Positions 6,001 to 29,609 of a stretch of 32,000 bases of DNA are shown here, piece after piece (position 1 is the stretch's first letter; every line of letters begins with the position of its first letter). This DNA comes from Candidatus Peribacter riflensis (GTDB taxonomy: Bacteria > Patescibacteriota > Gracilibacteria > Peribacterales > Peribacteraceae): contig CP013062.1 of assembly GCA_001430755.1 (NCBI GenBank), forward strand, positions 510,001 to 542,000. Direction: 5' to 3'. The notes beneath the pieces are model-generated. The model did not search any database. It was not told the origin of the DNA and saw only the letters and a program-made list of their open reading frames with translations. The position numbers and the translations under genes are program-made.

Positions 6001-8053
6001 GCAGACGCAGACTTCCACCTTCACCATCACCAAGACGGATAATCAGACGACCGTCCAGCCCGGCGGAACGCTGACGTACGTGATCGCAGTGACCAATACC
6101 TCGCAAACCGCGGCAACGAACGTGACGGTGACCGATACACTCCCCTCCTCCGTGACCTTCCAGAACGCTTCCGATAGCGGAACGCACACGGCGGGAACGG
6201 TGACGTGGACGGGCCTCAGCATCGGTGCAGGGGTGACGAAGACATTGACCGTCACCGTGCAAGTCGGATCTTCTGCCACGAACGGATCCGTTCTCACCAA
6301 TACCGCAAGCGTCTCGGGTGTCTCTGCCCAGGATACGACAACCGTGCAGACCACGACCCAGGGAGCGGATCTCTCGATCATCAAGACAGGACCGAGTACG
6401 GTCCAGCAGGGCGGGATGATCAGCTACACCGTGACCGTCACCAATCACGGCCCCGCAGCCGCAACGAATGCCACCGTGACCGATGTCATCCCCACCGGAC
6501 TGACCTTCAATGCCGCGTCTTCCTCGGGCTGTACCTTGAACGGCGGAGGAACCTCGGTCCTCTGCGGCATCCCCAGTCTTGCCGCCGGACTGTCAAAATC
6601 CTTCACGCTCGCCTTCACTGTACCCTCGTCCAGCGTGTGTAACACCACAGTGCAGAACACCGCCACGATCTCGAACGCGAACGATACGAACAGTGCCAAT
6701 AATACGAGCCAGACCATCGGGACACTCGTCCAGTGCGCCGAACCGACCTTCACTGTCAGCAAGACCGACGGCCGCACCACCGTGCTCCCCGGAGAATCGC
6801 TGACCTACCAGATCACCGTGACGAACACGTCTGCCTTCGCCACCACAAATGTGCAGGTGACGGATGCGCTGCCGTCGGGAGTCACCTACGTCACCTCTTC
6901 GGACAGCGGAACGCTCTACGGCTCGACCGTGAAGTGGACGCTCGCAAACCTCGCGGCTGGCGCCAGCAAGTCGCTCATCGTCATCGTCACCGTGCCCTCC
7001 TCGGCATCGAACGGAACCGTGCTCACGAACATCGTGATCGCCGGTACCGCCACGGCAGTGGATACGACCACGGTGAACACCAGCAGTTCGAGCTCAAGCT
7101 CCAGTTCCAGCTCCTCGAGCAGCGCGTGTAATCTGACCGTCACACTCAGAGATTCTCAGGATCCCGTCGATCCCGATGAAACCTTCACGTACACCGTGGA
7201 AGTGCGCAACAACGACTCGACGACGCTGAACAACGTCACGCTCACGCAAACCCTGGATAGCAACGTGAACTTTGTCTCAGTGACCGGCAATGGCAACAAC
7301 GATTCCGGCAACACCATCCGCTGGACGGGCCTCTCGATCGGCGGCTACGCCACCTCCACCTTTGAAACGACCGTGCGTGTGAAGGGTGACCGCGACGGCG
7401 CGACCATCCGCTCCAATGCCTTCGCCTGCTCGACGCAGGACAGTGAGAACACGCAGGTGACGGGCAATGACATTCCGCCTCCGCCGCCTCCTCCGCCTCC
7501 CTCCGGCGGGTACCTGACGATCGATAAGCAGGCGGATCGCAGCGAAGCGCAGGCCGGCAGCATCATCGCCTACACCATCACCGTCCGGAACCAGAGCAAT
7601 ACGGCCATCGGACCCGTGATGATCGAAGACACCTTCTCTGCAAGCGACATGACCGTGGAGTACGCCGATGGAGGCTCCATAGGCGGCGGATCGATCAGCT
7701 GGGATCTGGGCACGCTGGGCTCCAATGCCACGCGCCTGATCCACTACCGCGTGCGTCTGAGCCAGAGCCTGCAACACGGCCAAACCGTCCAAAACTCCGT
7801 GCGCGTCGTCAATGGCAACGCCACCGCCAGCGAGCAGGTGAATATCATCCGCTACTTCCCGCAGACCGGTCTGCTCGAGCGCTTCATCAAGTCGCCGGCA
7901 GACAAGGCCGCCTTCCTCCAGCCGGTGACCGCCAAGAAACGCCCGGCCGAAGGCGATGCCAGCATCCCCATGCTCACGTGGCTCATCCTCGCCTCTATGG
8001 GGCTGACCACAGGCGGATTCCTGGGGAAGAAACTCATCTTCATGGGAATGTAA
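2..8053 (+). CDS. giant secreted/surface repeat protein (DUF11-type 'conserved repeat domain' array with D-rich metal-binding-like motifs); 5' end lies outside the window
   Basis: The frame is open from nt 2. The track 'M' at nt 50 is an internal GTG, and nt 2-76 already encode a repeat unit (DNDQDGKTDYPNDPDCVSPSDNDET). About 20 units of ~110-115 aa follow, of two alternating flavours: ADLS[VI]TK[ST]GP...NxGP..A.NV.[IV].D..P.GLTF...VLCNNF.L and PTFTITKTD..TT..PG..LTY...V.NTS...ATNVTVTD.LP. The motif C.DGIDND.DG..DYP.D..C....DNDE occurs at nt 2-76, ~596-790 and ~2455-2665. Other landmarks: S14 at 7082-7123, P9 at 7475-7501, FPQTG at 7856-7870, C-terminal TM helix, TAA stop at 8051-8053. Confidence 0.85.
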   Translation, partial: DNDQDGKTDYPNDPDCVSPSDNDETGSIGSCNGQPISLTSLPNLQSIILHEDTTNIATYTFAKNDPKLFQDLNQSPTSYDFSTNADEYYDLYISNADGSVNPNGSYLTIDDFRNNTLLNAQVGHNIDAVELKLSSGPSFYADKVVKVAIGTGLSGDYLNQNGYATRALGTPNAQSTRLGDQHARLVLGFCDALQNLPACSDGIDNDGDGATDYPGDFSCDSPTDNDETNPKAQCQDGIDNDQDGLIDYPNDLGCSSAQDQTEANTDICSADGDISMKIYLTHVSNEGAGNTQPKIYLTNESLPVNPGQTIDLVQNGVPVIDAIEQLNIPGLSVQRGNGWVRIGLYGSHPTHESIERMIGEMVLLGAQVTAFENDTRASNPVERPRNNIHRGIPTEDEVYPNVGTNNTAFFLTVDTANDVFTIRYAPVLCPAPQADLSVTKSGPSSVVAGNTVSYTVTAANAGPHTATNVVIADVIPAGLTFDAGASTPGCILNGAGTSVLCNNFSLTAGQTRTFTIAFTVPSTHPCDGTNMITNQATVSSSQGDPNAGNNTSTTVTTPVQCPAAPKADLSIVKTGPSSVLRGEAIAYTVTVTNAGPTDAQNVVITDLIPTGLTFDAGASTPGCVLNGGGTSVLCNNFTLQPAQSRTFTIAFTTASSLSCGSTIRNTADVASSQGDPNSVNNHSETVSTVTCPTADVTITKSGPVSVHRGGNILYTITVTNLGPNRSDNVVVVDRPESMAGLTFNAAQTDPDCVLNGVEVLCNNISLLPGQSRTYNIVFTVSQTFACGGTIANRANVNVSTPDPHGDNNWSERIVTSVTCAQCNDGIDNDQDGATDYPADFSCTDPNDNDETNPKAQCQDGIDNDQDGTVDFPTDVGCTSAQDNDESNPLLTPDLSITKSGPTIADRGNAVSYTVTVTNIGAATALNVVVADVVPTGLTFHGGLSSTDCLLNGAGTSVLCNNFSLAPGQTKTFTITFNIPTSVSCGSTIQNTATVSTSNDPNGVNNTSQTVQTTVQCPVSNADLGISKSANLTSVMTGDPVTYTLTVTNSGPGTASNVVIGDALPAGVAFDVLFTQTSGFSCYRQPSDANHLVCVRSSMAAGETVTIRYQARVLQQGTCSPRSLTNTSNVTALSSTDQNSGNNYATATVQLTCPALTADLSVQKSVSPASVLQGQPLTYTLFVQNFGPGTAQNVLISDALPVGLPFNVQFLQSDGFSCWRQGSDPNHLVCSRPSMAPGETATIRFTATVSGGSCMPQTLLNTASVTATSTSDPNSGNNYSQASAQLTCEYPTFSIAKTDNHTTAMPGDVLTYILTVSNTSSVNATDVTVTDALPSSVTFLSASDSGQLSGGTVTWSHLSIPAHTTKTLSVSVQVQYGTSNGTILTNTANVAGVSAQDQTTVQVQDTADLSTTKTGPQLAQRGSTIFYTVTVFNAGPGASQNATVTDVVPTGLVFLPQQSSLQCVLAGNVVTCSGISLAAGQSQSLTLAFEIPSSVPCGQILLNAAEVHGTNDPNCVNDLSQTVTTAVQCINPTYTITKTDGHTTAEPGEALTYTISVTNTSTVNATSVTVTDTLPALVTFVSASDGGTQAGGTVTWSGLTIAAGATKQLTVQVQVNLTAPDDAVLTNYAAVAGMSAQDSTTVQVPPTNADLIIMKTGSMTAMQGNIAFYAITVFNAGPSASQNVVIGDVIPAGFTFNQMYSSPECVLNGAGTSVLCNNFTLATGQSRSFTVAFNVTASTVCNAAVQNTATVSTSNDTNDSNNTSQTVSTTIQCPNPTFTITKTDNQTTVQPGGTLTYVIAVTNTSQTAATNVTVTDTLPSSVTFQNASDSGTHTAGTVTWTGLSIGAGVTKILTVQVQVSAQATNGTVLTNAATVAGTSALDTTTVQSQISSFTITKTDNQTVVQPGALLTYVVSVTNTSQVNASNVTVTDTLPVLATFVSASDSGTQTGGTVTWSGLTIAAGATKQLTVQVLVSQTAPHGTVLINTATIAGLSAIDTTTVQTQTSTFTITKTDNQTTVQPGGTLTYVIAVTNTSQTAATNVTVTDTLPSSVTFQNASDSGTHTAGTVTWTGLSIGAGVTKTLTVTVQVGSSATNGSVLTNTASVSGVSAQDTTTVQTTTQGADLSIIKTGPSTVQQGGMISYTVTVTNHGPAAATNATVTDVIPTGLTFNAASSSGCTLNGGGTSVLCGIPSLAAGLSKSFTLAFTVPSSSVCNTTVQNTATISNANDTNSANNTSQTIGTLVQCAEPTFTVSKTDGRTTVLPGESLTYQITVTNTSAFATTNVQVTDALPSGVTYVTSSDSGTLYGSTVKWTLANLAAGASKSLIVIVTVPSSASNGTVLTNIVIAGTATAVDTTTVNTSSSSSSSSSSSSSSACNLTVTLRDSQDPVDPDETFTYTVEVRNNDSTTLNNVTLTQTLDSNVNFVSVTGNGNNDSGNTIRWTGLSIGGYATSTFETTVRVKGDRDGATIRSNAFACSTQDSENTQVTGNDIPPPPPPPPPSGGYLTIDKQADRSEAQAGSIIAYTITVRNQSNTAIGPVMIEDTFSASDMTVEYADGGSIGGGSISWDLGTLGSNATRLIHYRVRLSQSLQHGQTVQNSVRVVNGNATASEQVNIIRYFPQTGLLERFIKSPADKAAFLQPVTAKKRPAEGDASIPMLTWLILASMGLTTGGFLGKKLIFMGM
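5325..5552 (+). repeat. 228-bp perfect intragenic direct repeat, copy 1
   Basis: Compared base by base with 6015-6242 (offset 690 nt = 230 codons). The copies are identical, with mismatches immediately outside both ends. Confidence 0.9.
6015..6242 (+). repeat. 228-bp perfect intragenic direct repeat, copy 2
   Basis: Identical to 5325-5552. Both encode ...TFTITKTDNQTTVQPGGTLTYVIAVTNTSQTAATNVTVTDTLPSSVTFQNASDSGTHTAGTVTWTGLSIGAGVTK. Confidence 0.9.
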
Positions 8054-8081
8054 GCATCGTCCATTCCACACAGGAACAAGG

Positions 8082-8105
8082 CCCCGCCGATCCCGGCGGG
8101 GTTTT
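8082..8105. terminator. rho-independent-type terminator between convergent genes
   Basis: CCCCGCCG (8082-8089), ATCC loop, CGGCGGGG (8094-8101), then TTTT (8102-8105). It lies between the giant protein stop (8053) and the pth stop (8117). Confidence 0.7.
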
Positions 8106-8116
8106 GATATGCAGGC

Positions 8117-8674
8117 TCACTGCTGCGATGAGCCGAGCACGAACTCCTCCACCTTGCGCGGCAGCTCCGTGCGCAACGCCGCATCCAGAAGCGTGCGTTC
8201 CTCAGCCGAAGGCACGCTCAGCACCCACTCGGCGAGGTCCGCCCCCGCAGGGGCCTGCCCCAGCCCGATGCGCAGCCGCGGGAATCCCTCACCGGCGTTC
8301 TCGACCACCGATTTGAGTCCGTTGTGCGTGCCCGGTCCTCCCTGACTGCGAAAGCGCACTTCGCCGAGCGGCAGATCGCAATCATCGCTGAGCACCAAAA
8401 GCTGGAACGTCGGATCGGCTTTGTAGTAGTCGACCAGCTTGTGCACCGCCTCGCCCGAACGGTTCATGTACGTCTTTGGTTTCACCAGCAGCACCGGCAC
8501 AGTGCCGATCATCATTTCTGCAATGGATGCCTGGAACTTCGGGCGATCGCGCCACTCTCCTCCTCCGAATACACTGTGCAGGGCATCGAGAGCCCGAAAA
8601 CCCGCATTGTGCCGTGTAGATTCATACGAGGAGCCGGGATTGCCGAGGCCGACGATGAGCAGGGCAGGTTTCAC
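8117..8674 (-). CDS. pth: peptidyl-tRNA hydrolase
   Basis: LLIVGLGNPGSSYESTRHNAGF...KPKTYMNRSG...RIGLG matches the Pth family. The track ORF starts at GTG 8716. The GTG at 8674 gives the canonical N-terminus MKPALLIVGLGNPG. Confidence 0.9.
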   Translation of the reverse strand: MKPALLIVGLGNPGSSYESTRHNAGFRALDALHSVFGGGEWRDRPKFQASIAEMMIGTVPVLLVKPKTYMNRSGEAVHKLVDYYKADPTFQLLVLSDDCDLPLGEVRFRSQGGPGTHNGLKSVVENAGEGFPRLRIGLGQAPAGADLAEWVLSVPSAEERTLLDAALRTELPRKVEEFVLGSSQQ

Positions 8675-8731
8675 AAAAGAGAGTGTAGCAGACGATACTC
8701 CCCGGCGAAGCTCCACAGGAGCGAAGACGGG

Positions 8732-9124
8732 TCAGGACAGGAACTGGTGCACGATCTGCGCGAAGGCCTGCAGCGCCCGCAGGCTCTGTGCCTCGGTCAC
8801 ACGAATGCCCACATCATGGGCGATACTGTTCCGCAGCCGGTGAGCGATCCAGAGTTCCTCCGCATGGTGAAGCCGTGGAGCGGCCTGTTTCAGTTTTTCG
8901 GCGAAGGTACCCTGATAGTCGAGTGCCTTGAGCACGGCATCGCAGACCTTCTCGGCATCCAGCACGCGCTGTGCGGGGCTCTTCAGTTCCAGAGCAGCAT
9001 CCCACGCAGACCGCAGGCGCTCTTTCTGCAGGGCGGGAATTTTTGTCCGTCGCCGCTTCGTCGCCCAGATCACGAAGGTGAGGCTGGCGATCGCGAACCC
9101 GGCGAGGAGGAGCATCCAGTGCAT
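8732..9124 (-). CDS. small membrane-anchored protein with HEPN/DUF4145-like R-x4-H motif
   Basis: N-terminal TM helix (WMLLLAGFAIASLTFVIW) followed by KRRR, then a helical domain ending in AHRLRNSIAHD (RNxxxH). ATG at 9124. The start is 4 nt downstream of the upstream gene's stop. Confidence 0.6.
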   Translation of the reverse strand: MHWMLLLAGFAIASLTFVIWATKRRRTKIPALQKERLRSAWDAALELKSPAQRVLDAEKVCDAVLKALDYQGTFAEKLKQAAPRLHHAEELWIAHRLRNSIAHDVGIRVTEAQSLRALQAFAQIVHQFLS

Positions 9125-9128
9125 ACGG

Positions 9129-9851
9129 TCACGATTTCACGGTGATCTTTCTCTTCGTCAGCTCCCCCAACGAGAGCTCGCGGCTCACCACGCCCGAGAG
9201 CAGCTCCTGAATGCGCTTGGCATCTTTGAGGTTCTTGCCGTGCAGGTAGGCCTCCATATTTGCGAGGATCGCCGCAGCGACGAGGCGCGGCTGCGAAACA
9301 TTGTCGAGCGACACCGTGCCTCCCGTCGAGACCTTTTCCACCGTGATGGTGCCGTAGCGGAACAGCGTGCCTGAGATGCCCTTGATCTCGTACGTCACTC
9401 CCTGGATATCTGAAAAGAGAATCTTCGTCGCCGAACGGTGGAACCACCCGTGCCACTGCACGTCGATGATGGCCCGGTCCGTGATGAGCCAGACATCGAG
9501 AAAGTAATCGAGAAAGTTCCGCATCCACCATACCAGAGAGAGCACGCTCCACACGGCCACGACGTAGAAGATCATCAGAAACGGCGCGATGGCGAGGAAC
9601 GTCCAGGACGCGACGAAAGAGACCGATGGCCAGAAGAGATGCTGCAACCCCAGACGCCAGTGCGTGTGGACGTACAGACGGACCTCCTCATCGTCCTCCA
9701 GATGTTTCTGGAAACACCAGTGATTGAGCTTGGCGAGGAGCGAATGCACGGCCGCAGTGTAGCAGATGAGGAGAGGGGAAATAGAGGAGGCAAAGGAAGC
9801 AGAGGAAACAAAGGAAAGAGAGGAAAGAGATGATTGGCCAGCAGAAGGCAT
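9129..9851 (-). CDS. membrane protein with bacterial PH-like (YdbT/bPH-type) domain
   Basis: Two TM helices, then LDVWLITDRAIIDVQWHGWFHRSATKILFSDIQGVTYEIKGISGTLFRYGTITVEKV, which resembles bPH domains. The true start may be GTG 9749 (MHSLLAKLNHW...), because the first 34 codons translate a polypyrimidine tract. Confidence 0.65.
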   Translation of the reverse strand: MPSAGQSSLSSLSFVSSASFASSISPLLICYTAAVHSLLAKLNHWCFQKHLEDDEEVRLYVHTHWRLGLQHLFWPSVSFVASWTFLAIAPFLMIFYVVAVWSVLSLVWWMRNFLDYFLDVWLITDRAIIDVQWHGWFHRSATKILFSDIQGVTYEIKGISGTLFRYGTITVEKVSTGGTVSLDNVSQPRLVAAAILANMEAYLHGKNLKDAKRIQELLSGVVSRELSLGELTKRKITVKS

Positions 9852-9939
9852 ACGAAGAAATTCCTTTATTTCTTCTCATTCTTTTGTTTCCTTAACCTGT
9901 CCCTACACAACTTCTTCTCCATCCCCTATACTGGATCAG

Positions 9940-10560
9940 ATGATCCGGAAGCCCTTCACCCTCTGGTTCCACTTCTTCGATGTTCTGCTGAACATCGTCA
10001 TCATCGTGGCGGTGGTGGCGGGCATCCGGACGTTCCTCGTTTCACCGTTTCAGGTGGAGGGCAACTCCATGATCGACACACTCGAGAACCGCCAGTACAT
10101 CATCATCAACAAGCTCGTATACTTTCTGAACAAGCCGGGGCGCGGCGACGTCGTCGTCTTCCGTCCACCGAACACCGACCACAGCAAACACTACGTGAAG
10201 CGCATCATCGGCGAGCCGGGCGACGAGATCATCATCCGCAACGGATCAGTCTTCGTGCGCGTCGGCGGCAAAGACAAAGAACGCCAGGTCGCCGAGCCCT
10301 ACCTGAATGACCGTAACCAGGATCACACCTACGTCGGCGCGGCGGGCAGTGGAGAAGAGAAGCGCTATCCCGTCCCCGCGGGCCACTACTTCCTGCTCGG
10401 CGACAACCGCTTGGGGAGCCTGGATTCCCGGTCCTTCCGCAATGCGCAGAACGAGCCCACTCCTTTCGTGCCCGAAGATGACATCAAGGGACGCGTCTGG
10501 TTCGTGGCCCTGCCCTTAAGCAAAGCCCACGCCATGGAGGCACCGGAGTACGGTTTTTAG
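9940..10560 (+). CDS. lepB: signal peptidase I
   Basis: N-terminal TM helix, then VEGNSM, GDVVVF, YVKRIIGEPGD and LLGDNRLGSLDSR motifs. ATG 9940 is preferred over the track start 9766, whose extension (EEAKEAEETKEREER) merely translates a polypurine tract. Confidence 0.9.
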   Translation: MIRKPFTLWFHFFDVLLNIVIIVAVVAGIRTFLVSPFQVEGNSMIDTLENRQYIIINKLVYFLNKPGRGDVVVFRPPNTDHSKHYVKRIIGEPGDEIIIRNGSVFVRVGGKDKERQVAEPYLNDRNQDHTYVGAAGSGEEKRYPVPAGHYFLLGDNRLGSLDSRSFRNAQNEPTPFVPEDDIKGRVWFVALPLSKAHAMEAPEYGF

Positions 10561-10660
10561 GGATAGGGTTAGGGCTAGGATTGAGGTGTTTTTTAGGGAA
10601 CTTTTTTCCCGATACCCTAGTCACTTTCTCTCCCGACCCTCACCCTAATCCTATCCCTAT
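10561..10660. repeat. TAGGG-core G-rich arm (10561-10587) and CCCTA-core C-rich arm (10636-10660), imperfect inverted pair
   Basis: GGATAGGGTTAGGGCTAGGATTGAGG ... CCCTCACCCTAATCCTATCCCTAT. The arms share ATAGGG and TAGGATT blocks when one is reverse-complemented. Confidence 0.7.
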
Positions 10661-10744: not shown

Positions 10745-10936
10745 ATGTTCAAGAAGACTTCTGACTACCTCCGTGGCGCCGTCGAAGAGCTCCACCACGT
10801 CCGCTGGCCCACCCGCCAGCAGGCCGTGCGGCTGTCACTCATCGTGATCGCGTTCGTCTTCGGCACGGCAGTGCTCTTCGGCGTCGTGGATTTCCTCCTC
10901 GCACGCGTCGTCTCTCTCCTCCTCTCCTTCACCTAA
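10745..10936 (+). CDS. secE: preprotein translocase subunit SecE
   Basis: 63 aa: MFKKTSDYLRGAVEELHHVRWPTRQQAV followed by a single TM helix. It lies immediately upstream of nusG, the conserved secE-nusG arrangement. Confidence 0.8.
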   Translation: MFKKTSDYLRGAVEELHHVRWPTRQQAVRLSLIVIAFVFGTAVLFGVVDFLLARVVSLLLSFT

Positions 10937-10967
10937 CCCTAACCCTAACCCTAACCTTCACCCTATT
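10932..10967. repeat. (CCCTAA)n telomere-like tandem repeat in the secE-nusG spacer
   Basis: CCTAACCCTAACCCTAACCCTAACC, then TTCACCCTATT. The repeat includes the secE stop codon and ends 3 nt before the nusG ATG. Confidence 0.9.
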
Positions 10968-12310: not shown

Positions 12311-13627
12311 CTATAATGCCCCTCTCGCGCTCTGCACTTCTCGTGGGAAGAGCAGCAGGAGCCCCGTCATTTCGACAATGTGACCGACGCAGTACCCCAG
12401 TGCCAGACTGAAGACACCCAACTTCGGAGCGAGCGACCACGAGAGCGCGATGGCAATCACGCCATTGAATACGGTGAGAATCGCCGGGATCGTCGTATGT
12501 TTGGTGGCGAAGTATGCCCGCGTGAAGAGGTGGTTCAGGCTCTCGAAGGGAATGCTCAGAGCGTAGAGCGCGAGACAGGTGAAGAAGACCGGCACGAAGA
12601 GCGTCTTCAAATGAATGAGCCATGCCGCAACGGGCGTGAGGAGCACGAGCAGAATCGCCCCCGGAATCGTGAGCAGGAGCATCCACACGACTCCCCTCTT
12701 CAGGTACTGGCGGTACCGCCCCCACTCGCCGCGCGCCGCAGACTGACTCAGGGGCGAAAAGAGCGAGAGGGCCAGCGCCATGCCGGTGACGCCCACCACC
12801 ACCGACTGAAAGTTGCGCGCGTAGGCATTGACCGCGATGGAACCGACCGAGAGCCCCGAAGCGATGCGATCGAACACGAGCAGTTCCACCTGCAGCGCCC
12901 CGAGTGCAAGCATGCGCGGCAACATGAGCAGCCCCATCTCAGTCAGATCCGGATGCCACCACGTGAGTGCGAAACGGTATCCGGCGCGGACGATGGCGAG
13001 CAGGCGGATGAGCGTATAGAGCAGTGCACCAGCGAGCGTGCCGAGAATGGGACCGTAAGGACCGACGAACGGCGTGAGCCAGAGCGTGCCTGCGATCGTG
13101 CCGAGGGTGAAGACCACCGGGGTCAACCCGTAGATCCAGAAACGCTGGATGGTATTGAGGTACTGGCCGAATGCGTTGCCGAAGACGAAGAGAAAATTCG
13201 TGAGGAGCGCGATGCGCGCGAAGGTGGTGTAGAGCGCAAGACTCTCGCCTTCGAATTGCGTAAAGGCCGGAGCCACCCACGGAAAGACCGCCGCCAGCAG
13301 CAGAGCCAGAACGCCGAAGAGGATGGCTGCCACCGTGATGACTCCGTTAAGGAGTGCCGACATGGCACTCCGGTTTTGTGCCGCCTCGTACCGCGCGAGC
13401 AGGGGCACGAGCGCCACCGAGAACCCCGCCATGATCGTCACCTGAAAGAGGAGGTCTGAGGGACGGAAGGCCGCCACGTACACATCCACCACCGCAAGGC
13501 CGGGGAACGTGCGGTTGAGCAGGTTGTCGCGGATGAGTCCGGCGAACGACGCCGTGAATTGCGTGACCGCGAGCACGGCCGCGCCCCCGAGGATGCGATG
13601 CTGGGAACGAAGAGCGCTGAAGCGCAT
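12311..13627 (-). CDS. murJ: lipid II flippase MurJ/MviN family
   Basis: About 14 predicted TM helices. N-terminal ...FAGLIRDNLLNRTF...DVYVAAFRPSDLLFQV..AGFSVALVPLL is typical of MurJ. ATG 13627 (MRFSAL...) is preferred over 13678. Confidence 0.8.
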   Translation of the reverse strand: MRFSALRSQHRILGGAAVLAVTQFTASFAGLIRDNLLNRTFPGLAVVDVYVAAFRPSDLLFQVTIMAGFSVALVPLLARYEAAQNRSAMSALLNGVITVAAILFGVLALLLAAVFPWVAPAFTQFEGESLALYTTFARIALLTNFLFVFGNAFGQYLNTIQRFWIYGLTPVVFTLGTIAGTLWLTPFVGPYGPILGTLAGALLYTLIRLLAIVRAGYRFALTWWHPDLTEMGLLMLPRMLALGALQVELLVFDRIASGLSVGSIAVNAYARNFQSVVVGVTGMALALSLFSPLSQSAARGEWGRYRQYLKRGVVWMLLLTIPGAILLVLLTPVAAWLIHLKTLFVPVFFTCLALYALSIPFESLNHLFTRAYFATKHTTIPAILTVFNGVIAIALSWSLAPKLGVFSLALGYCVGHIVEMTGLLLLFPREVQSARGAL

Positions 13628-13695
13628 ACACGGAGTGTAGCGAGAGCACACGCAAAATGCAGCGGGACTTGCACGCATTCCTCAGGACTGCACGG

Positions 13696-14487
13696 CTACC
13701 GTGAGACGTCGTCTAAGACGGCCTGCATGTACTCGAGCGTATTGATGCCCTCCACGATGCGCATGGACTGGGTCTCGTTGTTGAGGAAGACAAAGGAAGG
13801 CGACACGTAAATTTCGGTGTCGGTCTCGGCCATCGCCTTGTCTTCGAGCACGTAGTCGTACAGCTCTTCACCCTCGATACAGGTCTGCAGACCCACGGCA
13901 TCGGCACCCACCTGTGTTCCGAACGAGAGCAGCAGATCAAGCGGCAGAAGGCTCCCGCGCTCGTTCATGAGCAGATCCAGGTACGCCCAGAAACCGTCGT
14001 TCCCCAGCTGCTGGGCAACGCACTCTGTCGCAATGCCGGACCGGTAGTCGTTCTGATTATCCGTGCCCGGGTAGTGGCGGAAGACCCAGTGCATGCGGTC
14101 ACTGTTCTGCTCGAAGAACTCGCCCATCTTCATGTGGATCAACTGCGTGTAGAGGCTGGTGAGCGCTCCGTACTCCACGAGCGTCACCTTGGTCTGCGGG
14201 TTGCCGCGGATGTGCTCATCGGGTTCGATGTCTGTAAGAAAGAGGTACGGGCTGGGCTCCTGCGGCAGGGGCTTGTCGCCGGTGTACTGCGCGATGTCTT
14301 CGTACTTTTTTAAGTCAGGCTGCGCCACCGGAGCGATGAGAGGCACGGCAGGCTGCTCCGGAGCGGCCCCGCGAAACGGCTCGGGACGGCCGATCATCCA
14401 CTCGGCAAAGAAGTACCCGCCGATGAGGATCAGCAGGCACAGAGCCACGAAGAGCCATACCTTTGTCCGGTCCTGCGATTGCATCAT
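13696..14487 (-). CDS. membrane-anchored DsbA-like thioredoxin-fold protein lacking the CXXC active site
   Basis: N-terminal TM helix. KVTLVEYGALTSLYTQL stands where the family has ..EF.DFQCP[FY]C. Downstream family features are kept (ATECVAQQLGNDGFWAYLDLL, LQTCIEGEE, VSPSFVFLNN in place of the GTP cis-Pro loop). Confidence 0.7.
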   Translation of the reverse strand: MMQSQDRTKVWLFVALCLLILIGGYFFAEWMIGRPEPFRGAAPEQPAVPLIAPVAQPDLKKYEDIAQYTGDKPLPQEPSPYLFLTDIEPDEHIRGNPQTKVTLVEYGALTSLYTQLIHMKMGEFFEQNSDRMHWVFRHYPGTDNQNDYRSGIATECVAQQLGNDGFWAYLDLLMNERGSLLPLDLLLSFGTQVGADAVGLQTCIEGEELYDYVLEDKAMAETDTEIYVSPSFVFLNNETQSMRIVEGINTLEYMQAVLDDVSR

Positions 14488-14676
14488 ACTACGCAGAGAG
14501 TACGAGAAGTGTGCGCACGCGCCTAGACCCCACAGCTTGACTAGTCTCTTTCATATGCATGAGTGCTATTTGGAAGTGATGAGGACATAACAAAACTAAT
14601 ACGCAATCGAATGGCTCTGATGCAAGGAGAGTCAGATGCGTGAGTACATATCGCACTGGTACGCTTACGGGCAACT

Positions 14677-17600
14677 ATGCGACATCTGTTGGGAAGAATC
14701 ACAGTGGGAATCGCGCTCGGCATCGTGCTGATTCTCGTCCTTCAGCAGAATGTCTCGCGCAAACCGGAGGGAGGCTGGAATTTCTTCGCAGCCTTGGTTG
14801 ATGTCACGGACTGCCCGGTGGGCACGCACGTCTTCCACTGCAAGTGCAATCCCAAGACCATCGCAGCAGCTGAAGACATATCCGAGGAAGAGGCAGGGGG
14901 AAAGGATGTGTACTGCTGCGCCGTCACAGAAAAAGGCTATCTCGATGAGATGAAGAATCCCAATGGGGCAGTGGCGGAGGAGGGGTACAACAAAATGGTG
15001 GCCTTCCTCAAGCTTTGGGGGGAGCATTCCGGCTCCGACGAAGAAAAAGAAAAATTCTTCAATGGGGAGTTCGCGATGACGTACGAGAAGAGTGATGGAA
15101 CCCAGGCACAGGAAAACCCCTCCTGCCCCACAGTCAGCTGCAACGACTGTAATGAATACATCAACATCATCACCGGTCAGGGGGGAAGCAGTTATCCCTC
15201 CTCATCCGGAACCTCCTCCGACGGCGGAGGAAGCTCTGCCAGCGGCGGAGGCAGTTCAGCCAGTGGAGGAGGTTCGAGTCGTGGGGGTGGCGGCAGTTCC
15301 CGGGCAGGTGGGCGTTCAAGCGCGGGCGGAAGCTCCAGTGAAGGAGGCAGCAGTTCAAGCGAAGAAGGATCCAGTTCCTCTGAAGAGTCCAGTTCCTCTG
15401 AAGGAGGATCAAGCTCGAAAGGGGGAGGAGGCTCCCGTTCCTCTGGCGGAGGATCGAGTGCCAGCGATGAGAGCTCATCTGAAGAAAGCTCCAGCTCAGA
15501 AGAGAGCTCGAGCAGCGAGGAGAGTTCCAGCTCGGAAGAGAGTTCGAGCAGCGAAGAAAGCTCCAGCTCAGAAGAGAGCTCGAGCGAAGATTCTTCGTCT
15601 TCTTCCAGTAACGCCTACTACGTCATCTGCGACAAAGTTGATCCTAAAGGATACTGCTGTCTCGTCACTGATGCGTCCCAAGGAAAGAAATGCGACAAGC
15701 TGGGCAGCCCCGATACCTGCCAGAGCCCCGGAACCGATCCTGCAAAAAAAGATAACGTGCGTGGCAACTGGTACCTCGCGCAGGCACAGCAAGGAGTGCC
15801 GAGCAATCTGCAGGGCGCCCAGAACCGCTGCATGAGCGAAGGAGGCGGATCGGATGCGGGCGGCCCCAAGGAGTGCAAGGGCGGATGCGGGAACGGCGAG
15901 GTGGAAGAGGGCGAGGCGTGCGATGAGGGGAGGGCGGACAATACCGACCCCATGGCCGGCTCCGTCGCCGAGGCCCCTGGCTGCACCGGGGAAAAATGTG
16001 GCAATGGCACCGTGAACATCATGCGCTCTCTTTCGTACGCACGTGAACCCGTGCGCGGAAAAATGCTGTGGAGCGATGCGTGGGGTGAACAACTCAAGAA
16101 GAGCAACTGTACGGATGAATGCAAAATTGCAGACTGTTCCGAGGCAGGCAAGGCAGGCAACGCCGAGGATCAGATGAAGGCCATCAACGGCTGCCTCGGC
16201 CTCCACACCGATGACGCCGCTGAGTTGGTCTGCACTCCCATCAAGAAACAGTTCATCGACGATAAGGAGTTTGTCATTCCGAAAGGGAATGTGGGCGTGG
16301 GAGATTCCCCGTCACTCGACAATGTCGAGACGGATTTCGCCTCCTGCACTCTCCTCCCCGGAAGGAGCACCGACTACTCCCAATTCATCATGGGTGGCGG
16401 ACAAGAATTGGGCTCCCCACTTATGGTGGAGGAAGACGAGGGAGGGATCGCCTATTCGCCAGCTTCTCCCTTCCTCGCCCAGGCAGCTCCCCCTCCCGGT
16501 GCCGATGCTGGTCCCTGTGCTGCGAACAAAGGTCAATGTGCCGGAAACGCAGCACCAGACCAGAAAAAAACTGGGGTGGTGGGGGATCTGTGCGGGTGCT
16601 ACTGCTGGACTGAAAAAGCAGGACGCGTTGATGACGCAAACAAACCCTGCAGTTCCGGCGGTGACTGCAAGAGCGGCACGTGTTACATCGTTGATACCAA
16701 CGATCCGAATAAAAAAATCCAATGTAAGGGGAACTCAGATCCTGCATGCACCGACGCTCAAGCGCATGCCATTGGCAAATGCGCCAGAACGGTCTACTAC
16801 TGGAATCATCCGCAGTGCGGCCCACGCGCCGATAAGCTAGGCATGCTCTGGTGCGTCAATCACGGCTGTGTGGAGCACCCCATCCGCGAGCGCAAGAGTG
16901 TCAATCGCAAAGATGAAACTCCCTTCCCGCCCATGGGTCAAGGCGGCATGCCCGGCAAACCGGGCGGTGCACCCGGAGGTGGAGGTCCGGGAACCGGAGG
17001 GGGAACCGGAGGCGGAGGAGATACAGGTGGCGGTGGCGGTGGGGGCGGAGGAGGAGGAAGTGGAGGCTCTGGCGGCAGCGGCGGGAGCTCACGCGCCAGT
17101 GTGATCTCTTCCGCCAGATCGAGCGTGGTGAGCAGCACAACCTCCAAGAGCAGTTCCAAGAGCAGTTCCAAGAGCAGCAGCAAGAGTGGCTCGAGTGGGG
17201 GTGGGCCTCCCGGCGGGGGCAGCAAATCCAGTGCGAGCAAGTCGGCTTCAAGCAAATCTTCGAGTAAATCTTCCAGCAAGTCCTCTTCCTCCTCTGCTTC
17301 AAGCAAGTCTACAGGCCCGTCTTCTGCCTCCTCTTCCTCCAGCAAATCTTCCTCATCCTCCTCTGCTTCAAGTAAATCTACAGGCCCGTCTTCTTCCAGT
17401 AAGTCTTCGAGCAGCAGTAAGAGTAGCAGTGGAAGCAGCCAGAGTTCCTGCAGCTCGCCCTGCTCCCGCAGTTCGTCTTCGTCACGATCTGCCAAGTGCG
17501 GGAACGGGCGTATCGATCTGGGCGAAGACTGTGACAATGGAGGAATGTGCAAGGCTGGTCCACGGCAGTTCGCAGAGTGCAATGCAGATGCTGACTGCTT

Positions 17601-19932
17601 CGAGGCACAAGGGCAGTGCATGGCGGGCTGGTGCAGCGACGGACTCCCCTGCTTCGGCGACTGGGATTGTGTCGATCTGTACCAGTGCATCTACAACTCC
17701 CTGAAGGATCCCTCCTGCACCGCGCAGTGCAAATGGACCAGCTCCCGCTCGTCGTCGAGCAGCCGGACCTCGGGCCTCAGCAGCGGATCAAGCCAGAGCA
17801 GTCAGTCTAGTAGTGGAAGTAGTGGAAGTAGTGGAAGTAGTGGAAGTAGTGGGAGCAGCAGAAGCAGCACCTCGAGCATCGTTATTCAGAGTTCCCCATC
17901 ATCACGCTCGTCCAGTTCATCCACCCTCTCCAGTCGTTCTTCTTCCAGTTCCTCCAGCAGGTCCCGACTGTGCGGCAACGCCCTCATCGAGATCGGCGAA
18001 GACTGCGATAACGGAAGCATCTGTGCAGCAGGAGACTTCGCCGGACGGCGGTGCGCACGGAACAGTGATTGCTCCTCCTATCGGGGTCCGTGTTCCGCAG
18101 GCACGTGCTCCGGCAAGCCCTCTGTCTTCTGCGGAAGCGACTTCGACTGCATAGAGGAATTTGCCTGCACCTATGATACGGCCTCAGATCTCACCTGCTC
18201 CACTCAGTGCAAATGGACAAGCTCCCGCTCCTCGTCGAGCAGCCGGACCTCGGGCCTCAGCAGCGGATCAAGCCAGAGCAGTCAGTCTAGTAGTGGGAGT
18301 AGTGGGAGCAGCAGTAGCAGGAGCTCCGGTTCGTCACGCACGTCCACTCCGCCCTTCTGCGGCAATGGTGTTCTCAACAGCGGCGAAGATTGTGATGACG
18401 GCAACCTGACGAACGGAGATGGCTGCGACAGCTTCTGCCAGCGCGAGAATATCATCGTCCAGCAGTGTGGCAACGGACGCGTGGAAGTTCCGGAGGAATG
18501 CGATGACGGCAACCGCATTGCCGGCGATGGCTGCGCTCCCACCTGCATGCGTGAGAATCCTCTGGCAAGCTGCGGCAACGGCAGTATCGAGGCTCCGGAA
18601 CAGTGCGACGATCGTAATACCACGGACGGCGACGGCTGTGATCGTTTCTGTCGCATCGAGTATCCCTGGGGTTCCAGCTCCAGCTACACTCCCGGCCAAT
18701 TCGTCTGCGGCAACAATATCCTCGAACCGGGAGAGGAATGCGATGACGGCAACCGCATGATCGGAGACGGATGCAATTCCCTGTGTCGCAGGGAACAGAC
18801 GTCCGGACAGCCCGTTTGCGGCAATAGTCTCAAGGAAGCATTTGAACAGTGCGATGACGGCAACCGGCAGGCGGGTGATGGATGTGATGCCTCGTGCCGT
18901 CTGGAGTCGACCATCATCACAGGTACACCCAATTGCGGCAATAACCTCCTGGAGTCGGGTGAAGAGTGCGACGATGGCAACCGGCGGGATTTTGACGGCT
19001 GCTCCGCCACCTGTTTCCATGAGCAAGGATCCTGCGGCGACGGCATCATCCAGCAGGCTCTCGGCGAACAGTGCGAACCGTCGATTCCGCGCGATCCCGA
19101 TAACCCTCTCCCCTACGGCTGCGGCCCGAACTGCCGGTTCACCTTAAACTTCTGTGGGAACGGGCTCCTCGATGCGGGTGAACAGTGCGATGCAGGTTCA
19201 CGCCTCAACAGTAATCAGCCCGATTCCCTCTGCCGACTCGATTGTTCCCTGCCACGTTGCGGAGATCGCATCGCGGACAGTGGGGAACAGTGTGACGACG
19301 GCAATGCCAAGAGCGGCGATGGCTGCGACCGCTTCTGCTTGCGCGAGGGCGGCGCCCCTGGTTCCTCCGCAGGATTTGCTGGCCAGTGCGGCAACGGGCG
19401 TATGGAAAATGGGGAACAGTGTGACGACGGCAACCTCAAGGTGGGTGACGGATGCAACGCATCGTGCCGTGTCGAAGCTGGCTGGCGCTGTGATGCCTCT
19501 GGGTGCTGCTTCACAGCAACCATCTGTGGCGATGGTATCCGTGGATGTAATGAGCAGTGTGACGACGGCAATCTCAAGGTGGGTGACGGATGCAATGCCT
19601 CGTGCAACCTCGAGTCCGGCTGGCGGGACGATGGCACAGGCAGACTCTGCTTCACGGGAGCAACGACCTGTGGCGATGGTATCCGTGGATGCAATGAGCA
19701 GTGTGACGACGGCAATCGCCTGAACGGCGATGGCTGCTCTGCAGACTGCCGTATAGATTCCGGCTTTGCCACTTCTGCACAACCAACGGGTCCGTTCCTC
19801 GCCACGCTCCGCGCCTATTCTCTCACCACCTCCCAGGCCATCCCGGGCCAGACTGGCCCTGCTGCCGTTGCCGTCATGGCCGCCGGTGCTGCCGCAGGAT
19901 TCTCCTGGATGCGACGCAGGAGGAAGCGATGA
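14677..19932 (+). CDS. giant secreted cysteine-rich-repeat protein (Myxococcus-type CGNG..CDDGN..GDGC repeats, DUF4215-like) with Ser-rich linkers and a C-terminal sorting signal
   Basis: N-terminal TM/signal anchor (ITVGIALGIVLILVL). S/G/E low-complexity region at ~15181-15610, G-run and S/K-rich region at ~16930-17495. Two ~80-aa Cys modules are followed by 12 tandem CG[ND]....E.CDDGN...GDGC...C units (18358-19750). The C-terminus is [30 protein letters not shown]. Confidence 0.85.
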   Translation: MRHLLGRITVGIALGIVLILVLQQNVSRKPEGGWNFFAALVDVTDCPVGTHVFHCKCNPKTIAAAEDISEEEAGGKDVYCCAVTEKGYLDEMKNPNGAVAEEGYNKMVAFLKLWGEHSGSDEEKEKFFNGEFAMTYEKSDGTQAQENPSCPTVSCNDCNEYINIITGQGGSSYPSSSGTSSDGGGSSASGGGSSASGGGSSRGGGGSSRAGGRSSAGGSSSEGGSSSSEEGSSSSEESSSSEGGSSSKGGGGSRSSGGGSSASDESSSEESSSSEESSSSEESSSSEESSSSEESSSSEESSSEDSSSSSSNAYYVICDKVDPKGYCCLVTDASQGKKCDKLGSPDTCQSPGTDPAKKDNVRGNWYLAQAQQGVPSNLQGAQNRCMSEGGGSDAGGPKECKGGCGNGEVEEGEACDEGRADNTDPMAGSVAEAPGCTGEKCGNGTVNIMRSLSYAREPVRGKMLWSDAWGEQLKKSNCTDECKIADCSEAGKAGNAEDQMKAINGCLGLHTDDAAELVCTPIKKQFIDDKEFVIPKGNVGVGDSPSLDNVETDFASCTLLPGRSTDYSQFIMGGGQELGSPLMVEEDEGGIAYSPASPFLAQAAPPPGADAGPCAANKGQCAGNAAPDQKKTGVVGDLCGCYCWTEKAGRVDDANKPCSSGGDCKSGTCYIVDTNDPNKKIQCKGNSDPACTDAQAHAIGKCARTVYYWNHPQCGPRADKLGMLWCVNHGCVEHPIRERKSVNRKDETPFPPMGQGGMPGKPGGAPGGGGPGTGGGTGGGGDTGGGGGGGGGGGSGGSGGSGGSSRASVISSARSSVVSSTTSKSSSKSSSKSSSKSGSSGGGPPGGGSKSSASKSASSKSSSKSSSKSSSSSASSKSTGPSSASSSSSKSSSSSSASSKSTGPSSSSKSSSSSKSSSGSSQSSCSSPCSRSSSSSRSAKCGNGRIDLGEDCDNGGMCKAGPRQFAECNADADCFEAQGQCMAGWCSDGLPCFGDWDCVDLYQCIYNSLKDPSCTAQCKWTSSRSSSSSRTSGLSSGSSQSSQSSSGSSGSSGSSGSSGSSRSSTSSIVIQSSPSSRSSSSSTLSSRSSSSSSSRSRLCGNALIEIGEDCDNGSICAAGDFAGRRCARNSDCSSYRGPCSAGTCSGKPSVFCGSDFDCIEEFACTYDTASDLTCSTQCKWTSSRSSSSSRTSGLSSGSSQSSQSSSGSSGSSSSRSSGSSRTSTPPFCGNGVLNSGEDCDDGNLTNGDGCDSFCQRENIIVQQCGNGRVEVPEECDDGNRIAGDGCAPTCMRENPLASCGNGSIEAPEQCDDRNTTDGDGCDRFCRIEYPWGSSSSYTPGQFVCGNNILEPGEECDDGNRMIGDGCNSLCRREQTSGQPVCGNSLKEAFEQCDDGNRQAGDGCDASCRLESTIITGTPNCGNNLLESGEECDDGNRRDFDGCSATCFHEQGSCGDGIIQQALGEQCEPSIPRDPDNPLPYGCGPNCRFTLNFCGNGLLDAGEQCDAGSRLNSNQPDSLCRLDCSLPRCGDRIADSGEQCDDGNAKSGDGCDRFCLREGGAPGSSAGFAGQCGNGRMENGEQCDDGNLKVGDGCNASCRVEAGWRCDASGCCFTATICGDGIRGCNEQCDDGNLKVGDGCNASCNLESGWRDDGTGRLCFTGATTCGDGIRGCNEQCDDGNRLNGDGCSADCRIDSGFATSAQPTGPFLATLRAYSLTTSQAIPGQTGPAAVAVMAAGAAAGFSWMRRRRKR

Positions 19933-22013
19933 AAGAGTCGGCCCTCTCTGACCTCTCGTATCCGATGACGCTGCCCTCTCTCCTCCGGCGCTTCCTGCTC
20001 CCCGCCACCCTTCTGGTGGCTCTCGTAACTGTCCTGACCTGGGAACCAGCTTCCTCCCCTCCAAACTTCAGGGCGCAGGTGACATCATCGACAACCTCCT
20101 CTGCGCTCTCTGGTACAGGATCGACAACATCTTCTTCGTCCCTCTCTGGTACAGGATCGACAACATCTTCTTCGTCTTCGTCTCTCTCGGACCCCGGCCT
20201 CTCCTCTTTGTCTTCCGCCCTGAGCTCCTCACAGCCAGCCGCATCTTCTTCAGTGGCCTCATCTGCATCCCCGACAAGTTCCGTTGGCATCCAATCTTCC
20301 GCCCCTGTCTCCTCCGCAGGAGCTCAGGCGAGCGATACGCCGGTGATCGGCTTGGAGGCGGGCCTGTGCGCCCAGGTGAAGCCGGACCCCGACACGGGGC
20401 AGAAACTGGTGTACTGCTGCATGGACGAAGGATACGTCTACCAACGTGAGGCCTCTCAGGAGGAGTACCAGGCATTCCTAGAGAGACTCGGAGAACTCGA
20501 AAACATGAATGCACGCGATGCCAAAGCAGCCTTCGAGGCCCCCTACAGCGGCAGCATCCACCAGAAGTACGGCTGGACGACGCTCTGTGGACGCCAGATT
20601 CCCTGTGATGTCTGCTCGCAGGATCACATCTGCGGCAACGGCATCGTGGAAGCGGCAGAGAAATGCGACGACGGCCCCCGCAACTCGGACGAAACCCCGG
20701 ATACCTGCCGACTGGATTGCACGCTGCCCTCCTGCGGCGACCGCGTCATCGACCGCCAGAAGGGCGAGGAGTGTGACGATGGAAATTTTAACGGAGACCT
20801 GCCCAACCGGTGCCGATCGACTTGTACGCTGCCTCTCTGCGGCGACAGGATCATCGATTCCTTCTACGGCGAAACCTGCGACTCGGGCAATGAGAATTCC
20901 GATTCAGCGCCGAACCGGTGCCGGTCGGCGTGTAAGTCGCCCAGTTGCGGCGACGGCGTCAAAGACAACAATGAGGAGTGTGATGACGGCAACCGCGGAG
21001 ATGGAGACGGATGTTCATTCCTCTGTTACATCGAACAGAGGCGGGAACCTCTGGATCTCACTCCACTCCGTTGCGGCAACGGCGTGCTGGAGCCGGGCGA
21101 GGAGTGTGACACGGGGGCGGAGAACGCCAATGTCCCCAATCGCTGCCGGCAGAACTGCTACCTGCCTCGGTGCGGTGACCGTATTCAGGATGAGGGGGAG
21201 GAGTGTGACGACGGCAATAGTGCGCGGGGCGATGGCTGCTCCCCCGAGTGCTCGCGCGAACTCACGCTCTCGCTCACGAATGTCTGCGGAAACCAGATCA
21301 TCGACCCCGGAGAGGAGTGCGATGCCGGACGCGCTAATACGAACATTCCCGACCACTGCCGATTCGACTGCCGTTTCCCCACGTGCGGGGATTACATCAA
21401 AGACACCAGCGAACAGTGTGATGACGGCAACCACTCCAACGGCGACGGCTGCACCGACTCCTGCTTCAGTGAATTCTGCGGCAACGGCACGCAAGAAATG
21501 GGCGAGGCGTGCGACGACGGCAATCTGGTGGGCGGCGACGGCTGCAGCCGCACATGCCAGAAGGAAATCGGTCAGGCTGTCGAGGCTCTCACCATGTCCA
21601 CTCAGAGTGCTGGTACACTGCGTCCGGCAGCATCCAGCCGTGGTCCACTCCCCGTCTCCTCCCGATCTGCGAGCGCCCCGCTCCAGCAGCAAACAACCTC
21701 TGCGCCCCCCTCTTCTTCCCTGCCTGCGGATGTCGCCGTGAACGTGGGGCAGCCCGAGCCGCTCTTCGTTGTTTCTTCCAGCTCCGCCGCTTCGCAGTGG
21801 TCCTCCACCCCGTTCGGCGCGCAGGTAATCACCTTCCCCACAGCTTCAGTCACCTCTCCGTCTCCCGTTTCTCCCTCCTCCTACTATTACACGCCGCAGC
21901 CCTCCTTCGCGGGCTCCGATGCCCTGAACGACACCGGCCCGGCAGCGCTCAGTATTGTCGCCATGGGGGCAGCGGCAGGCTTCGCCTGGGCGAGACGCAA
22001 GCGAAGGGATTAG
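19929..22013 (+). CDS. secreted cysteine-rich-repeat protein, paralogous architecture to the upstream gene
   Basis: Its ATG overlaps the upstream TGA (ATGA at 19929-19932). Hydrophobic N-terminus, Ser/Thr-rich region with a 36-bp tandem duplication (~20106-20176), VYCC module, 9 CG[ND]...CDDGN units. The C-terminus is [29 protein letters not shown]. Confidence 0.85.
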
Positions 22014-29554: not shown

Positions 29555-29609
29555 CCTATCCCTAACCCTATCCCTAACCCTATCCCTAACCCTACCCCTA
29601 CCCCCTATC
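29555..29609. repeat. (CCCTAACCCTAT)x3 plus CCCTAC variants, telomere-like C-rich tandem repeat in the pyrH-frr spacer
   Basis: CCTATCCCTAACCCTATCCCTAACCCTATCCCTAACCCTACCCCTACCCCCTATC. The complementary strand carries more than 8 G3+ runs. Confidence 0.9.

Follow-up and report, generated by a model that had tools for sequence, protein, structure and literature searches.

Two adjacent genes lie in a 32,000-nt stretch of the Candidatus Peribacter riflensis chromosome (GenBank CP013062.1, positions 510,001 to 542,000 of the forward strand; the whole stretch is referred to as the window hereafter). We judge it fairly probable that their products are exported separately and are surface proteins, rich in disulfides and anchored by the C-terminus, of a lineage-specific paralogue family, in which a cysteine-rich repeat array and a terminal tail would together form an anchoring stalk for variable N-terminal parts, and for which a function in attachment is putative. 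The two products are referred to as the large and small proteins, and a gene for a DsbA-like protein adjoins the large gene divergently. The host is a small-genome bacterium, as an earlier interpretation made from the letters alone (the sequence-only reading) had supposed: it is a member of the Peregrinibacteria, in the candidate phyla radiation (CPR), from Rifle groundwater, and its genome is 1.25 Mb in size. Compared with Ca. P. riflensis CP013064.1, the stretch has one mismatch over 22 kb.

Both open reading frames (ORFs), of 1751 and 694 aa with ATGA at 19929–19932, are present as the sequence-only reading described them, and all elements of the common build that it named (a hydrophobic N-terminus, a Ser-rich spacer, a module with a VYCC motif, and repeats) were found where it had placed them. 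The string KDVYCCAVTEKGY quoted for the VYCC module is contained in the translation, as is the small-protein counterpart, and Ser accounts for 18% and 14% of the large and small proteins, respectively. In both proteins, the repeats are tandem units of approximately 35–45 aa with four Cys and the acidic core E.CD.GN...GDGC. Their proposed membership of TIGR02232/DUF4215 was checked with profiles, and the scores were far above the curated cut-offs: Pfam DUF4215 (PF13948) gave 148.5 bits (6e-44) for the large protein and 108.2 bits (2e-31) for the small protein against a cut-off of 27, and NCBIfam TIGR02232 gave 379.5 bits (2e-116) and 157.7 bits (4e-47), respectively, against a cut-off of 20.8. 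The repeat counts of 12 plus variants and of 9 were also confirmed; in the large protein, the 12 units occupy aa 1228–1697, the 12-Cys variants are at aa 941 and 1099, and a further unit is at aa 404. Relatives elsewhere were found for the repeat arrays only (1842 matches below 1e-10, including Myxococcota and eukaryotes).

The search for the pair and its DsbA-like neighbour in related genomes clarified that this arrangement is conserved in Peribacteraceae. The DsbA-like gene divergently adjoins the large gene in all of the distinct contexts read (9/9), and the small gene comes next after the large gene in 7 of the 9; in L008, the contig ends inside the large gene. The unit is kept where its outer flank differs: NYN replaces MurJ in L010, and another upstream gene is found in the P0055 contig. 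Because the three genes stay together where the outer flanks change, their conservation supports a putative functional link among them. In all the orthologues read, the large protein has a complete tail followed by a stop codon, and the small protein has its own hydrophobic N-terminal segment.

At the extreme C-terminus of both proteins, a hydrophobic helix is followed by a basic end, and neither tail contains Cys. The two tails had been called almost identical, which holds well at the protein level: 16 of 25 residues are identical (64%) and 23 of 25 are similar (92%), while the DNA is 58% identical. Since the tails are alike as protein and less so as DNA, selection on the protein is indicated, not a recent copying event. 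The tail pattern occurs twice in the window, with 0 occurrences expected, and in the small-protein tail, G658 and P659 are invariant among 21 orthologues and the preceding T is nearly so.

DNA encoding the pattern TGP-x8-G-x-A-A-G-x2-W-x-R was then sought in one genome of each species, and at least 120 loci were found. A match was regarded as a true tail when it was in frame and hydrophobic and was closed by a stop codon 22–34 codons after the T of TGP. From the 122 matches listed, at least 55 true C-terminal tails were obtained. Among these listed matches, 49 of the 55 tails belong to metagenome-assembled genomes (MAGs) labelled Peribacteria or Peregrinibacteria, and the other six to MAGs labelled Gracilibacteria, Absconditabacterales, Dehalococcoidia (a 6-kb contig, possibly misbinned) or simply 'bacterium'; up to five tails occur in one genome on different contigs (SI048_bin16, with L020, L027, L054, L066 and L110). 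The remaining matches of the scan (Streptomyces and others) were rejected as chance matches in other reading contexts. Positions left free in the search pattern are nevertheless conserved: P at − 4 (39/55), G at − 2 (38/55), D at − 1 (28/55), A at + 3, + 10 and + 12, and R at + 21, so that the consensus is (P-x-G-D)-TGP-AAVAV(M/I)(A/G)AGAAAG(F/W/L/Y)xW(M/I)RR(K/R)(K/R). DUF4215 was detected in 47 of the 50 tail-bearing proteins scanned, and nearly all are Cys-rich (4–18%). In most of these paralogues, the tail is preceded by a conserved repeat arrangement that is common to the large protein, while their N-terminal parts vary (FG-GAP, Kelch, laminin-G-like or family-less). The repeat array and tail thus appear to be an anchoring cassette shared throughout a large family of paralogues, and the tail is not dedicated to the pair. 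The display module had been supposed to be a 'dedicated' one, an idea that is not supported, as the same tail ends many other DUF4215 proteins across Peribacteria genomes.

None of the NCBIfam models for C-terminal sorting fits the tail; there were weak, sub-threshold matches to the LPXTG, MYXO-CTERM, PEP-CTERM, IPTL-CTERM and GVDTG models. The LPXTG model TIGR01167 reached 16.4 bits in one paralogue type, a borderline pass. The only other borderline pass was that of the older model TIGR03382 (GC_trans_RRR), whose cut-off is 15.85: the large protein scored 18.5 bits and the small protein had no hit, and this unspecific model covered only the helix and the Arg run. The literature on a CPR sortase signal and on GVDTG was also searched, and nothing relevant to the tail was found. 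The window contains another surface protein with an ending of its own: the giant DUF11/CLIPPER protein at 50–8053 (+) (2667 aa, 1.9% Cys) carries in its C-terminus (approximately 7960–8053) the motif [FM]PQTG, about 35 residues, a hydrophobic helix and GKK, and this ending is kept in six orthologues. Because it is unlike the ending of the pair, these genomes seem to use two kinds of C-terminal signal. Our hypothesis is that the two kinds match the two sortase homologues annotated in the genome. A broader joint proposal is that the tail is an undescribed, lineage-specific sorting signal whose cargo is almost exclusively DUF4215 proteins, that it operates in Peregrinibacteria and perhaps in neighbouring CPR groups, that some enzyme handles it, possibly either of the two sortase homologues, which are unusually long, and that the three-gene unit is a dedicated folding and assembly unit of a two-component adhesin. 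We regard this combination as possible and put it forward tentatively.

One adjacency to a sortase-domain gene was observed, which is anecdotal. In L043, a Peribacteraceae MAG, such a gene (PF04203, 1.8e-17) and then an ORF that is Lgt-like by its motifs occupy the region 4776–6373 (−) and are convergent to a TGP-tailed gene of 1514 aa at 159–4703 (+). When metagenomes were scanned with the L043 sortase, a single contig of 1.7 kb was obtained, which was uninformative.

Several points weigh against the interpretation given at the outset. First, as to the tail, the residues preceding the helix are IPGQTGP in the large protein and ALNDTGP in the small protein, with the paralogue consensus PxGDTGP, and LPXTG is absent. 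TIGR01167 gave 14.9 bits (large) and 13.2 bits (small) against a cut-off of 15.9, and TIGR03901 (MYXO-CTERM) gave 17.0 and 8.4 bits, respectively, against a cut-off of 20. Among 147 ORFs located beside tail-bearing genes, Pfam recognized only scattered housekeeping families and no recurrent processing enzyme or sortase. Second, as to export and function, the N-terminal segments have no clear signal-peptidase site and may stay as anchors, and the attachment function is deduced from architecture only. Third, as to the unit, L006 has the large gene with no small gene at the position, and the conservation could partly reflect the shared ancestry of related genomes. Last, the two VYCC modules are barely similar (BLASTP E 0.11; hhalign probability 57%, E 1e-4, 44 columns), and the profile of each type matches its own orthologue group with no cross-matches. 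Homology of the two modules is plausible but weak; a firm relationship is not claimed, because each profile recognizes its own group only.

The same family of paralogues might instead build an envelope matrix, that is, the pair and its relatives would be a protective or structural coat (an S-layer-like layer or a glycocalyx scaffold) and not adhesins. The large number of paralogues with the same stalk and the same tail in each genome accords with such a coat, as do the Ser-rich, possibly glycosylated linkers and the heavy investment of the genome in surface sugars and S-layer genes described in parts of Anantharaman et al. 2016 (PMC4736985). However, no self-assembly domain was recognized, and the N-terminal parts of the paralogues differ from one another in the manner described above; owing to this variety, diverse binding fits better than a uniform coat. 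We therefore consider the matrix explanation unlikely, though with an appreciable chance of being right.

The relation between the two genes was interpreted in the sequence-only reading as co-translation through the ATGA. The TGA of the large gene and the ATG of the small ORF as called do overlap at 19929–19932, and AGGAGG is located 5 nt upstream. In the orthologue junctions read, however, the small gene starts at a conserved ATGACG 17–35 nt after the large-gene stop codon. In the window, the corresponding codon is the ATG at 19965, separated from the stop by 32 nt and located 36 nt downstream of the overlap ATG. In two more distant relatives, the gaps between the gene calls are 95 and 397 nt, and the true start in the latter looks to be approximately 190 nt after the stop. 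Among the sequences read, the 12-codon extension that creates the overlap is found in Ca. P. riflensis only (the window and P0029), and in L004 the frame upstream of the conserved start is closed by a stop codon. The AGGAGG corresponds to Arg-Arg-Lys codons of the large-protein tail, which is encoded by other codons in the orthologues. Moreover, the well-supported genes of the window (NusG, RRF, LemA and others) have no Shine-Dalgarno sequence; their leaders are pyrimidine-rich, and likewise the sequence before 19965. Judging from these junctions, the small gene probably does not begin at the overlap ATG, and the ATGA coupling, which is not conserved, is most likely a product of longest-ORF annotation.

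A coupled heterocomplex, in which the ATGA would enforce 1:1 co-translation of a dedicated two-part display module, is accordingly improbable in our estimation. It could appeal to the ATGA with its AGGAGG, to the conserved pairing of the genes, and to the small-residue motif GAAAG in both transmembrane helices, which could favour helix pairing. Nevertheless, the overlap and the AGGAGG are absent from the orthologue junctions read, where the conserved start stands further downstream; Shine-Dalgarno sequences are lacking in the well-supported genes; the GAAAG helix is common to all tail-bearing paralogues; and L006 shows that the large gene can occur without the small gene beside it. Co-transcription is a separate matter: as no terminator-like site was found between the two genes by a scan, which is a weak test, they are probably co-transcribed.

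Three further observations concern the leaders and the small protein. Arrays of CCCTAA-like hexamers occur in leaders at 10931–10957, 29560–29604, 10560–10574 and 10637–10651, that is, just upstream of the starts of NusG (10971) and RRF (29614) and near a SecE-like ORF; 20 matches with at most one mismatch were counted in comparison with 4.1 expected. The label 'putative lipoprotein' that the small protein bears in a published gene table was rejected, because there is no Cys within approximately 150 residues of its N-terminus. In some small-protein orthologues (P0030–P0033, P0046 and L005), an extra Cys-rich insert or DUF4215 unit lies between the signal segment and the VYCC module (alignment columns of about 100–170), and the N-terminal part of the small protein is therefore modular.

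The state of the cysteines bears on another explanation, namely, that the arrays act mainly as a metal or redox buffer at the cell surface, binding Ca2+ or other metals or absorbing oxidants. The strongly acidic (E.CDDGN...GDGC) and cysteine-dense repeats would suit such a function. On the other hand, an odd Cys count was found only in the large-protein central region (29 Cys); all other segments that contain Cys have an even number. In the AF2 model of the small protein, the first four repeats have a predicted local distance difference test score (pLDDT) of 84–92. A Foldseek search of this model against the PDB gave no significant whole-chain match, the only matches being those of single repeats to PAPP-A: a single modelled repeat superposes on the PAPP-A/PAPP-A2 module (PDB 7ufg, 8a7e, 8sl1 and 8d8o) over 36 columns with a root-mean-square deviation of 1.2–1.8 Å and 47–53% identity, at E > 1. 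Even Cys counts and a compact, high-confidence repeat model that superposes on a disulfide-bonded module suggest structural disulfides over free thiols, and buffering leaves the long linkers and the anchoring tails unexplained; the buffer is thus very improbable. Finally, an artefact might be suspected, in which a frameshift or faulty assembly has divided a single gene; the 4-nt overlap, the low-complexity repeats prone to assembly errors and the fragmented large gene in the L003 assembly could be cited for it. It is refuted, as assemblies made independently and from different species show the same two-gene structure: the large gene is complete with tail and stop ahead of the junction, a new signal sequence follows, and each protein has its own signal and tail in every orthologue read.

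The coordinates of all features are summarized in Table 1. The alignment of the large-protein VYCC module shows invariant C4, C15, VYCCA, C108, C113 and C116; its eight Cys positions are kept, and it is more divergent than the small-protein module. The latter has 82% mean column identity in five orthologues and is still recognizable in orthologues that are 40% identical overall; AF2 predicts four helices there with moderate confidence (pLDDT 65–82), and a word-index homology search found no relatives of it. Neither module has a Pfam match. For the central region of the large protein (427 aa), the Pfam scan likewise found no family, and a single relative below 1e-10 was found among 1.84 billion representative proteins; the region is kept in the large-protein orthologues L004 and L005. 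A sequence search of the large protein against the PDB yielded low-complexity noise only. With respect to strain and lineage differences, another strain of the same species has 69 additional nt in linker 2, within 17281–17394, and the L003 assembly breaks the large gene at another Ser-rich repeat (window approximately 15585–15692), L001 and L003 being the loci for these strain differences. L006 encodes at 230–9880 (−) a single large protein of 3216 aa with 320 Cys and with the same N-terminus and tail, and the next ORF is convergent and unrelated.

Table 1 Features of the three-gene unit in the window (positions count from the first letter of the stretch)
Feature	Position	Strand	Details and evidence
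Membrane-anchored thioredoxin/DsbA-fold protein, 263 aa, without CxxC	13696..14487	−	PF13462, PDB profile match
Divergent intergenic region, 189 nt	14488..14676	.	Conserved blocks 14520–14542 (including TTGACT), 14598–14610, 14619–14640
Large Cys-rich surface protein	14677..19932	+	1751 aa, 119 Cys; ORF translation, DUF4215 6e-44, TIGR02232 2e-116, Table S4 entry
Large-protein N-terminal hydrophobic segment (MRHLLGRITVGIALGIVLILVLQQN)	14677..14760	+	Read from sequence; strongly conserved in orthologues
Large-protein VYCC module, 8 Cys, lineage-specific	14797..15171	+	Orthologue alignment; no Pfam match
Linker 1, Ser/Gly/Glu-rich, low-complexity, 48% Ser, short tandem repeats	15172..15561	+	Composition
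Central Cys-rich region, no known family, 29 Cys, second YCC motif, DUF4215-like unit at aa 404	15562..16842	+	No Pfam match
Linker 2, Gly-rich then Ser/Lys-rich, strain-variable length	16843..17496	+	1774-aa vs 1751-aa alleles
Two 12-Cys variant repeats (17497–17730, 17971–18210), near-identical Ser-rich linker after each	17497..18357	+	
Array of 12 DUF4215/TIGR02232 repeats, 54 Cys	18358..19767	+	Pfam/NCBIfam, alignment consensus
Large-protein C-terminal tail	19837..19929	+	Conserved in orthologues
Small ORF as called	19929..22013	+	694 aa, 42 Cys
12-codon upstream extension of small ORF, creating the ATGA overlap, probably untranslated	19929..19964	+	
Small Cys-rich surface protein from conserved start, 682 aa, 42 Cys	19965..22013	+	Start MT..(F/L)LRR.LLP, DUF4215 2e-31, TIGR02232 4e-47
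Small-protein VYCC module, 6 Cys, predicted mainly helical	20349..20630	+	Orthologue alignment, AF2
Array of 9 DUF4215 repeats, 36 Cys	20631..21575	+	NCBIfam, AF2
Ser/Thr/Pro-rich stalk, predicted disordered	21576..21917	+	Sequence, AF2
Small-protein C-terminal tail	21918..22010	+	Orthologue alignment

The divergent neighbour had been described as a catalytically dead DsbA-fold protein, and the profile searches agree with this. It matches PF13462 (Thioredoxin_4) with 26.5 bits against a cut-off of 23.2, and its family profile matches the DsbA-like structure PDB 4n30 at 6.8e-19, with the CPFC of 4n30 aligned to non-Cys residues. The CxxC position is TSLY in the window and non-Cys in all Peribacteraceae orthologues, among which C156 and C203 are invariant; the distant homologue P0028, as well as 4n30, retains CPFC. 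Orthologues were found only in Peribacteraceae-type sequences (28 matches). Because the neighbour has no CxxC, it cannot oxidize the cysteines of the pair. The conserved blocks of the intergenic region came from an alignment of seven loci and are common to five Peribacteraceae loci, and the region is probably a shared control region. In most relatives, MurJ, at 12311–13678 (−) in the window, immediately follows the DsbA-like gene in the same orientation, L010 and the P0055 contig being exceptions; its longest ORF is 455 aa here, and it is called as 438 aa in L001 and L002 and as 455 aa in L003.

From these features, the following course of events may be proposed for the pair as anchored surface proteins. 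The two genes would most likely be transcribed together from the conserved divergent control region, which the DsbA-like gene would also use, and the two proteins would be translated independently, the small one from the ATG at 19965. The N-terminal segment of the large protein is predicted to be a signal peptide or a signal anchor, and each protein would enter the Sec pathway via its own hydrophobic segment. The 119 and 42 cysteines would form disulfides outside the membrane, with oxidation through DsbB and some further oxidase, and the DsbA-like neighbour is more likely a holdase or escort for the pair. The tail (TGP, an Ala/Gly-rich helix with GAAAG, W and RRKR) would hold the protein in the membrane and, speculatively, may also be a signal for sortase-like cleavage and wall attachment. 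The disulfide-stapled acidic arrays would then serve as stiff stalks and the strain-variable Ser-rich linkers as flexible spacers, so that the VYCC modules and the central region may be held distally as interacting ends, most likely attaching to a partner cell or surface.

The chromosomal surroundings of the unit are ordinary. The upstream region contains the 2667-aa DUF11 surface protein, a signal peptidase, SecE, NusG and MurJ, and the downstream region contains TPM/LemA, a DNA glycosylase, SpoU, an amino-acid kinase family gene (PF00696) and RRF. An Rfam scan detected two tRNAs only, with no hit in 14488–14676, and a promoter and terminator scan gave results not above chance. No accessory Sec or glycosyltransferase genes were found among the genes adjoining the pair.

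The sequence-only reading had assumed novelty, which holds for a part of the results. In the portions considered here, Anantharaman et al. 2016 (PMC4736985) reported that the Ca. P. riflensis genome is unusually cysteine-rich, with 19% of the cysteines in twenty large, mostly extracellular proteins, and proposed an attachment role for such proteins. The large protein is ORF RIFOXYC2_FULL_PER-ii_58_32_482 in Table S4 of that paper, with an equal length (1751 aa) and Cys count (119). In the same source, the small protein is ORF 483, which is outside the Cys-rich set of Table S4 and is labelled 'putative lipoprotein' in the general gene table (Table S2), and the DsbA-like neighbour is ORF 481, labelled 'hypothetical protein'. 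That table also contains DsbB and two sortase A homologues of approximately 400 aa; one of the annotated sortases adjoins a 628-aa pappalysin-1-like protein, and the large and small proteins bear the same KEGG label. The organism and the gene (ORF 482) are the same as those analysed here, and the passages and tables considered make no mention of the gene pair as such, of VYCC modules, of a C-terminal tail common to both proteins or of an inactive DsbA-like protein beside them. The core idea of Cys-rich extracellular, possibly attaching proteins in Peribacter is therefore already published, and the gain here is incremental. The additions made here are a conserved unit of three genes that includes an inactive DsbA-like protein, a corrected start for the small gene, and the shared and seemingly undescribed C-terminal tail that marks Peribacteria DUF4215 surface proteins.

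A life in attachment to other cells is assumed for CPR bacteria, but few of the molecules that make the contact are known. In Peribacteria, the pair adds to a small number of concrete candidates for such molecules. A recognizable tail makes it feasible to list the whole surface-protein set of Peribacteria-type genomes from sequence alone, and a conserved, inactive DsbA-like partner offers a testable idea for how a minimal cell folds proteins with more than 100 cysteines.

Likeness to several known systems can be pointed out. The TIGR02232 proteins of Myxococcota likewise consist of tandem acidic four-Cys repeats followed by a motif, a hydrophobic helix and an Arg-rich end. The MYXO-CTERM motif contains a conserved Cys, whereas the Peribacter tails have the motif TGP without Cys, in a CPR host. 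The sortase substrates with LPXTG in Gram-positive bacteria, including the serine-rich repeat adhesins, have the same layout: an N-terminal signal, a binding region, a Ser-rich spacer, a motif ending in TG, a helix and a basic tail. The Peribacter tails differ from them in having PGQ or LND before TG (mostly PxGD in the paralogues) and in the unusually conserved sequence of the helix. For the DsbA-like neighbour, a counterpart is ERp29, a thioredoxin-fold escort without CxxC: both keep the thioredoxin/DsbA fold, have lost the redox motif and are associated with secretory clients, the analogy being functional only and the client role putative here. PAPP-A and PAPP-A2 share the single repeat module with the Peribacter pair, which lacks their metalloprotease domain, and the PAPP-A-like repeat explains the 'pappalysin' labels in KEGG. 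The diatom adhesive-trail protein Ca5255 (bioRxiv 10.1101/2023.03.06.531300) also has DUF4215 repeats, although it is a eukaryotic secreted protein without a C-terminal anchor of the Peribacter kind. With its twelve DUF4215 repeats, Ca5255 is one of the adhesive proteins of that study and thus provides an independent precedent for an adhesive role.

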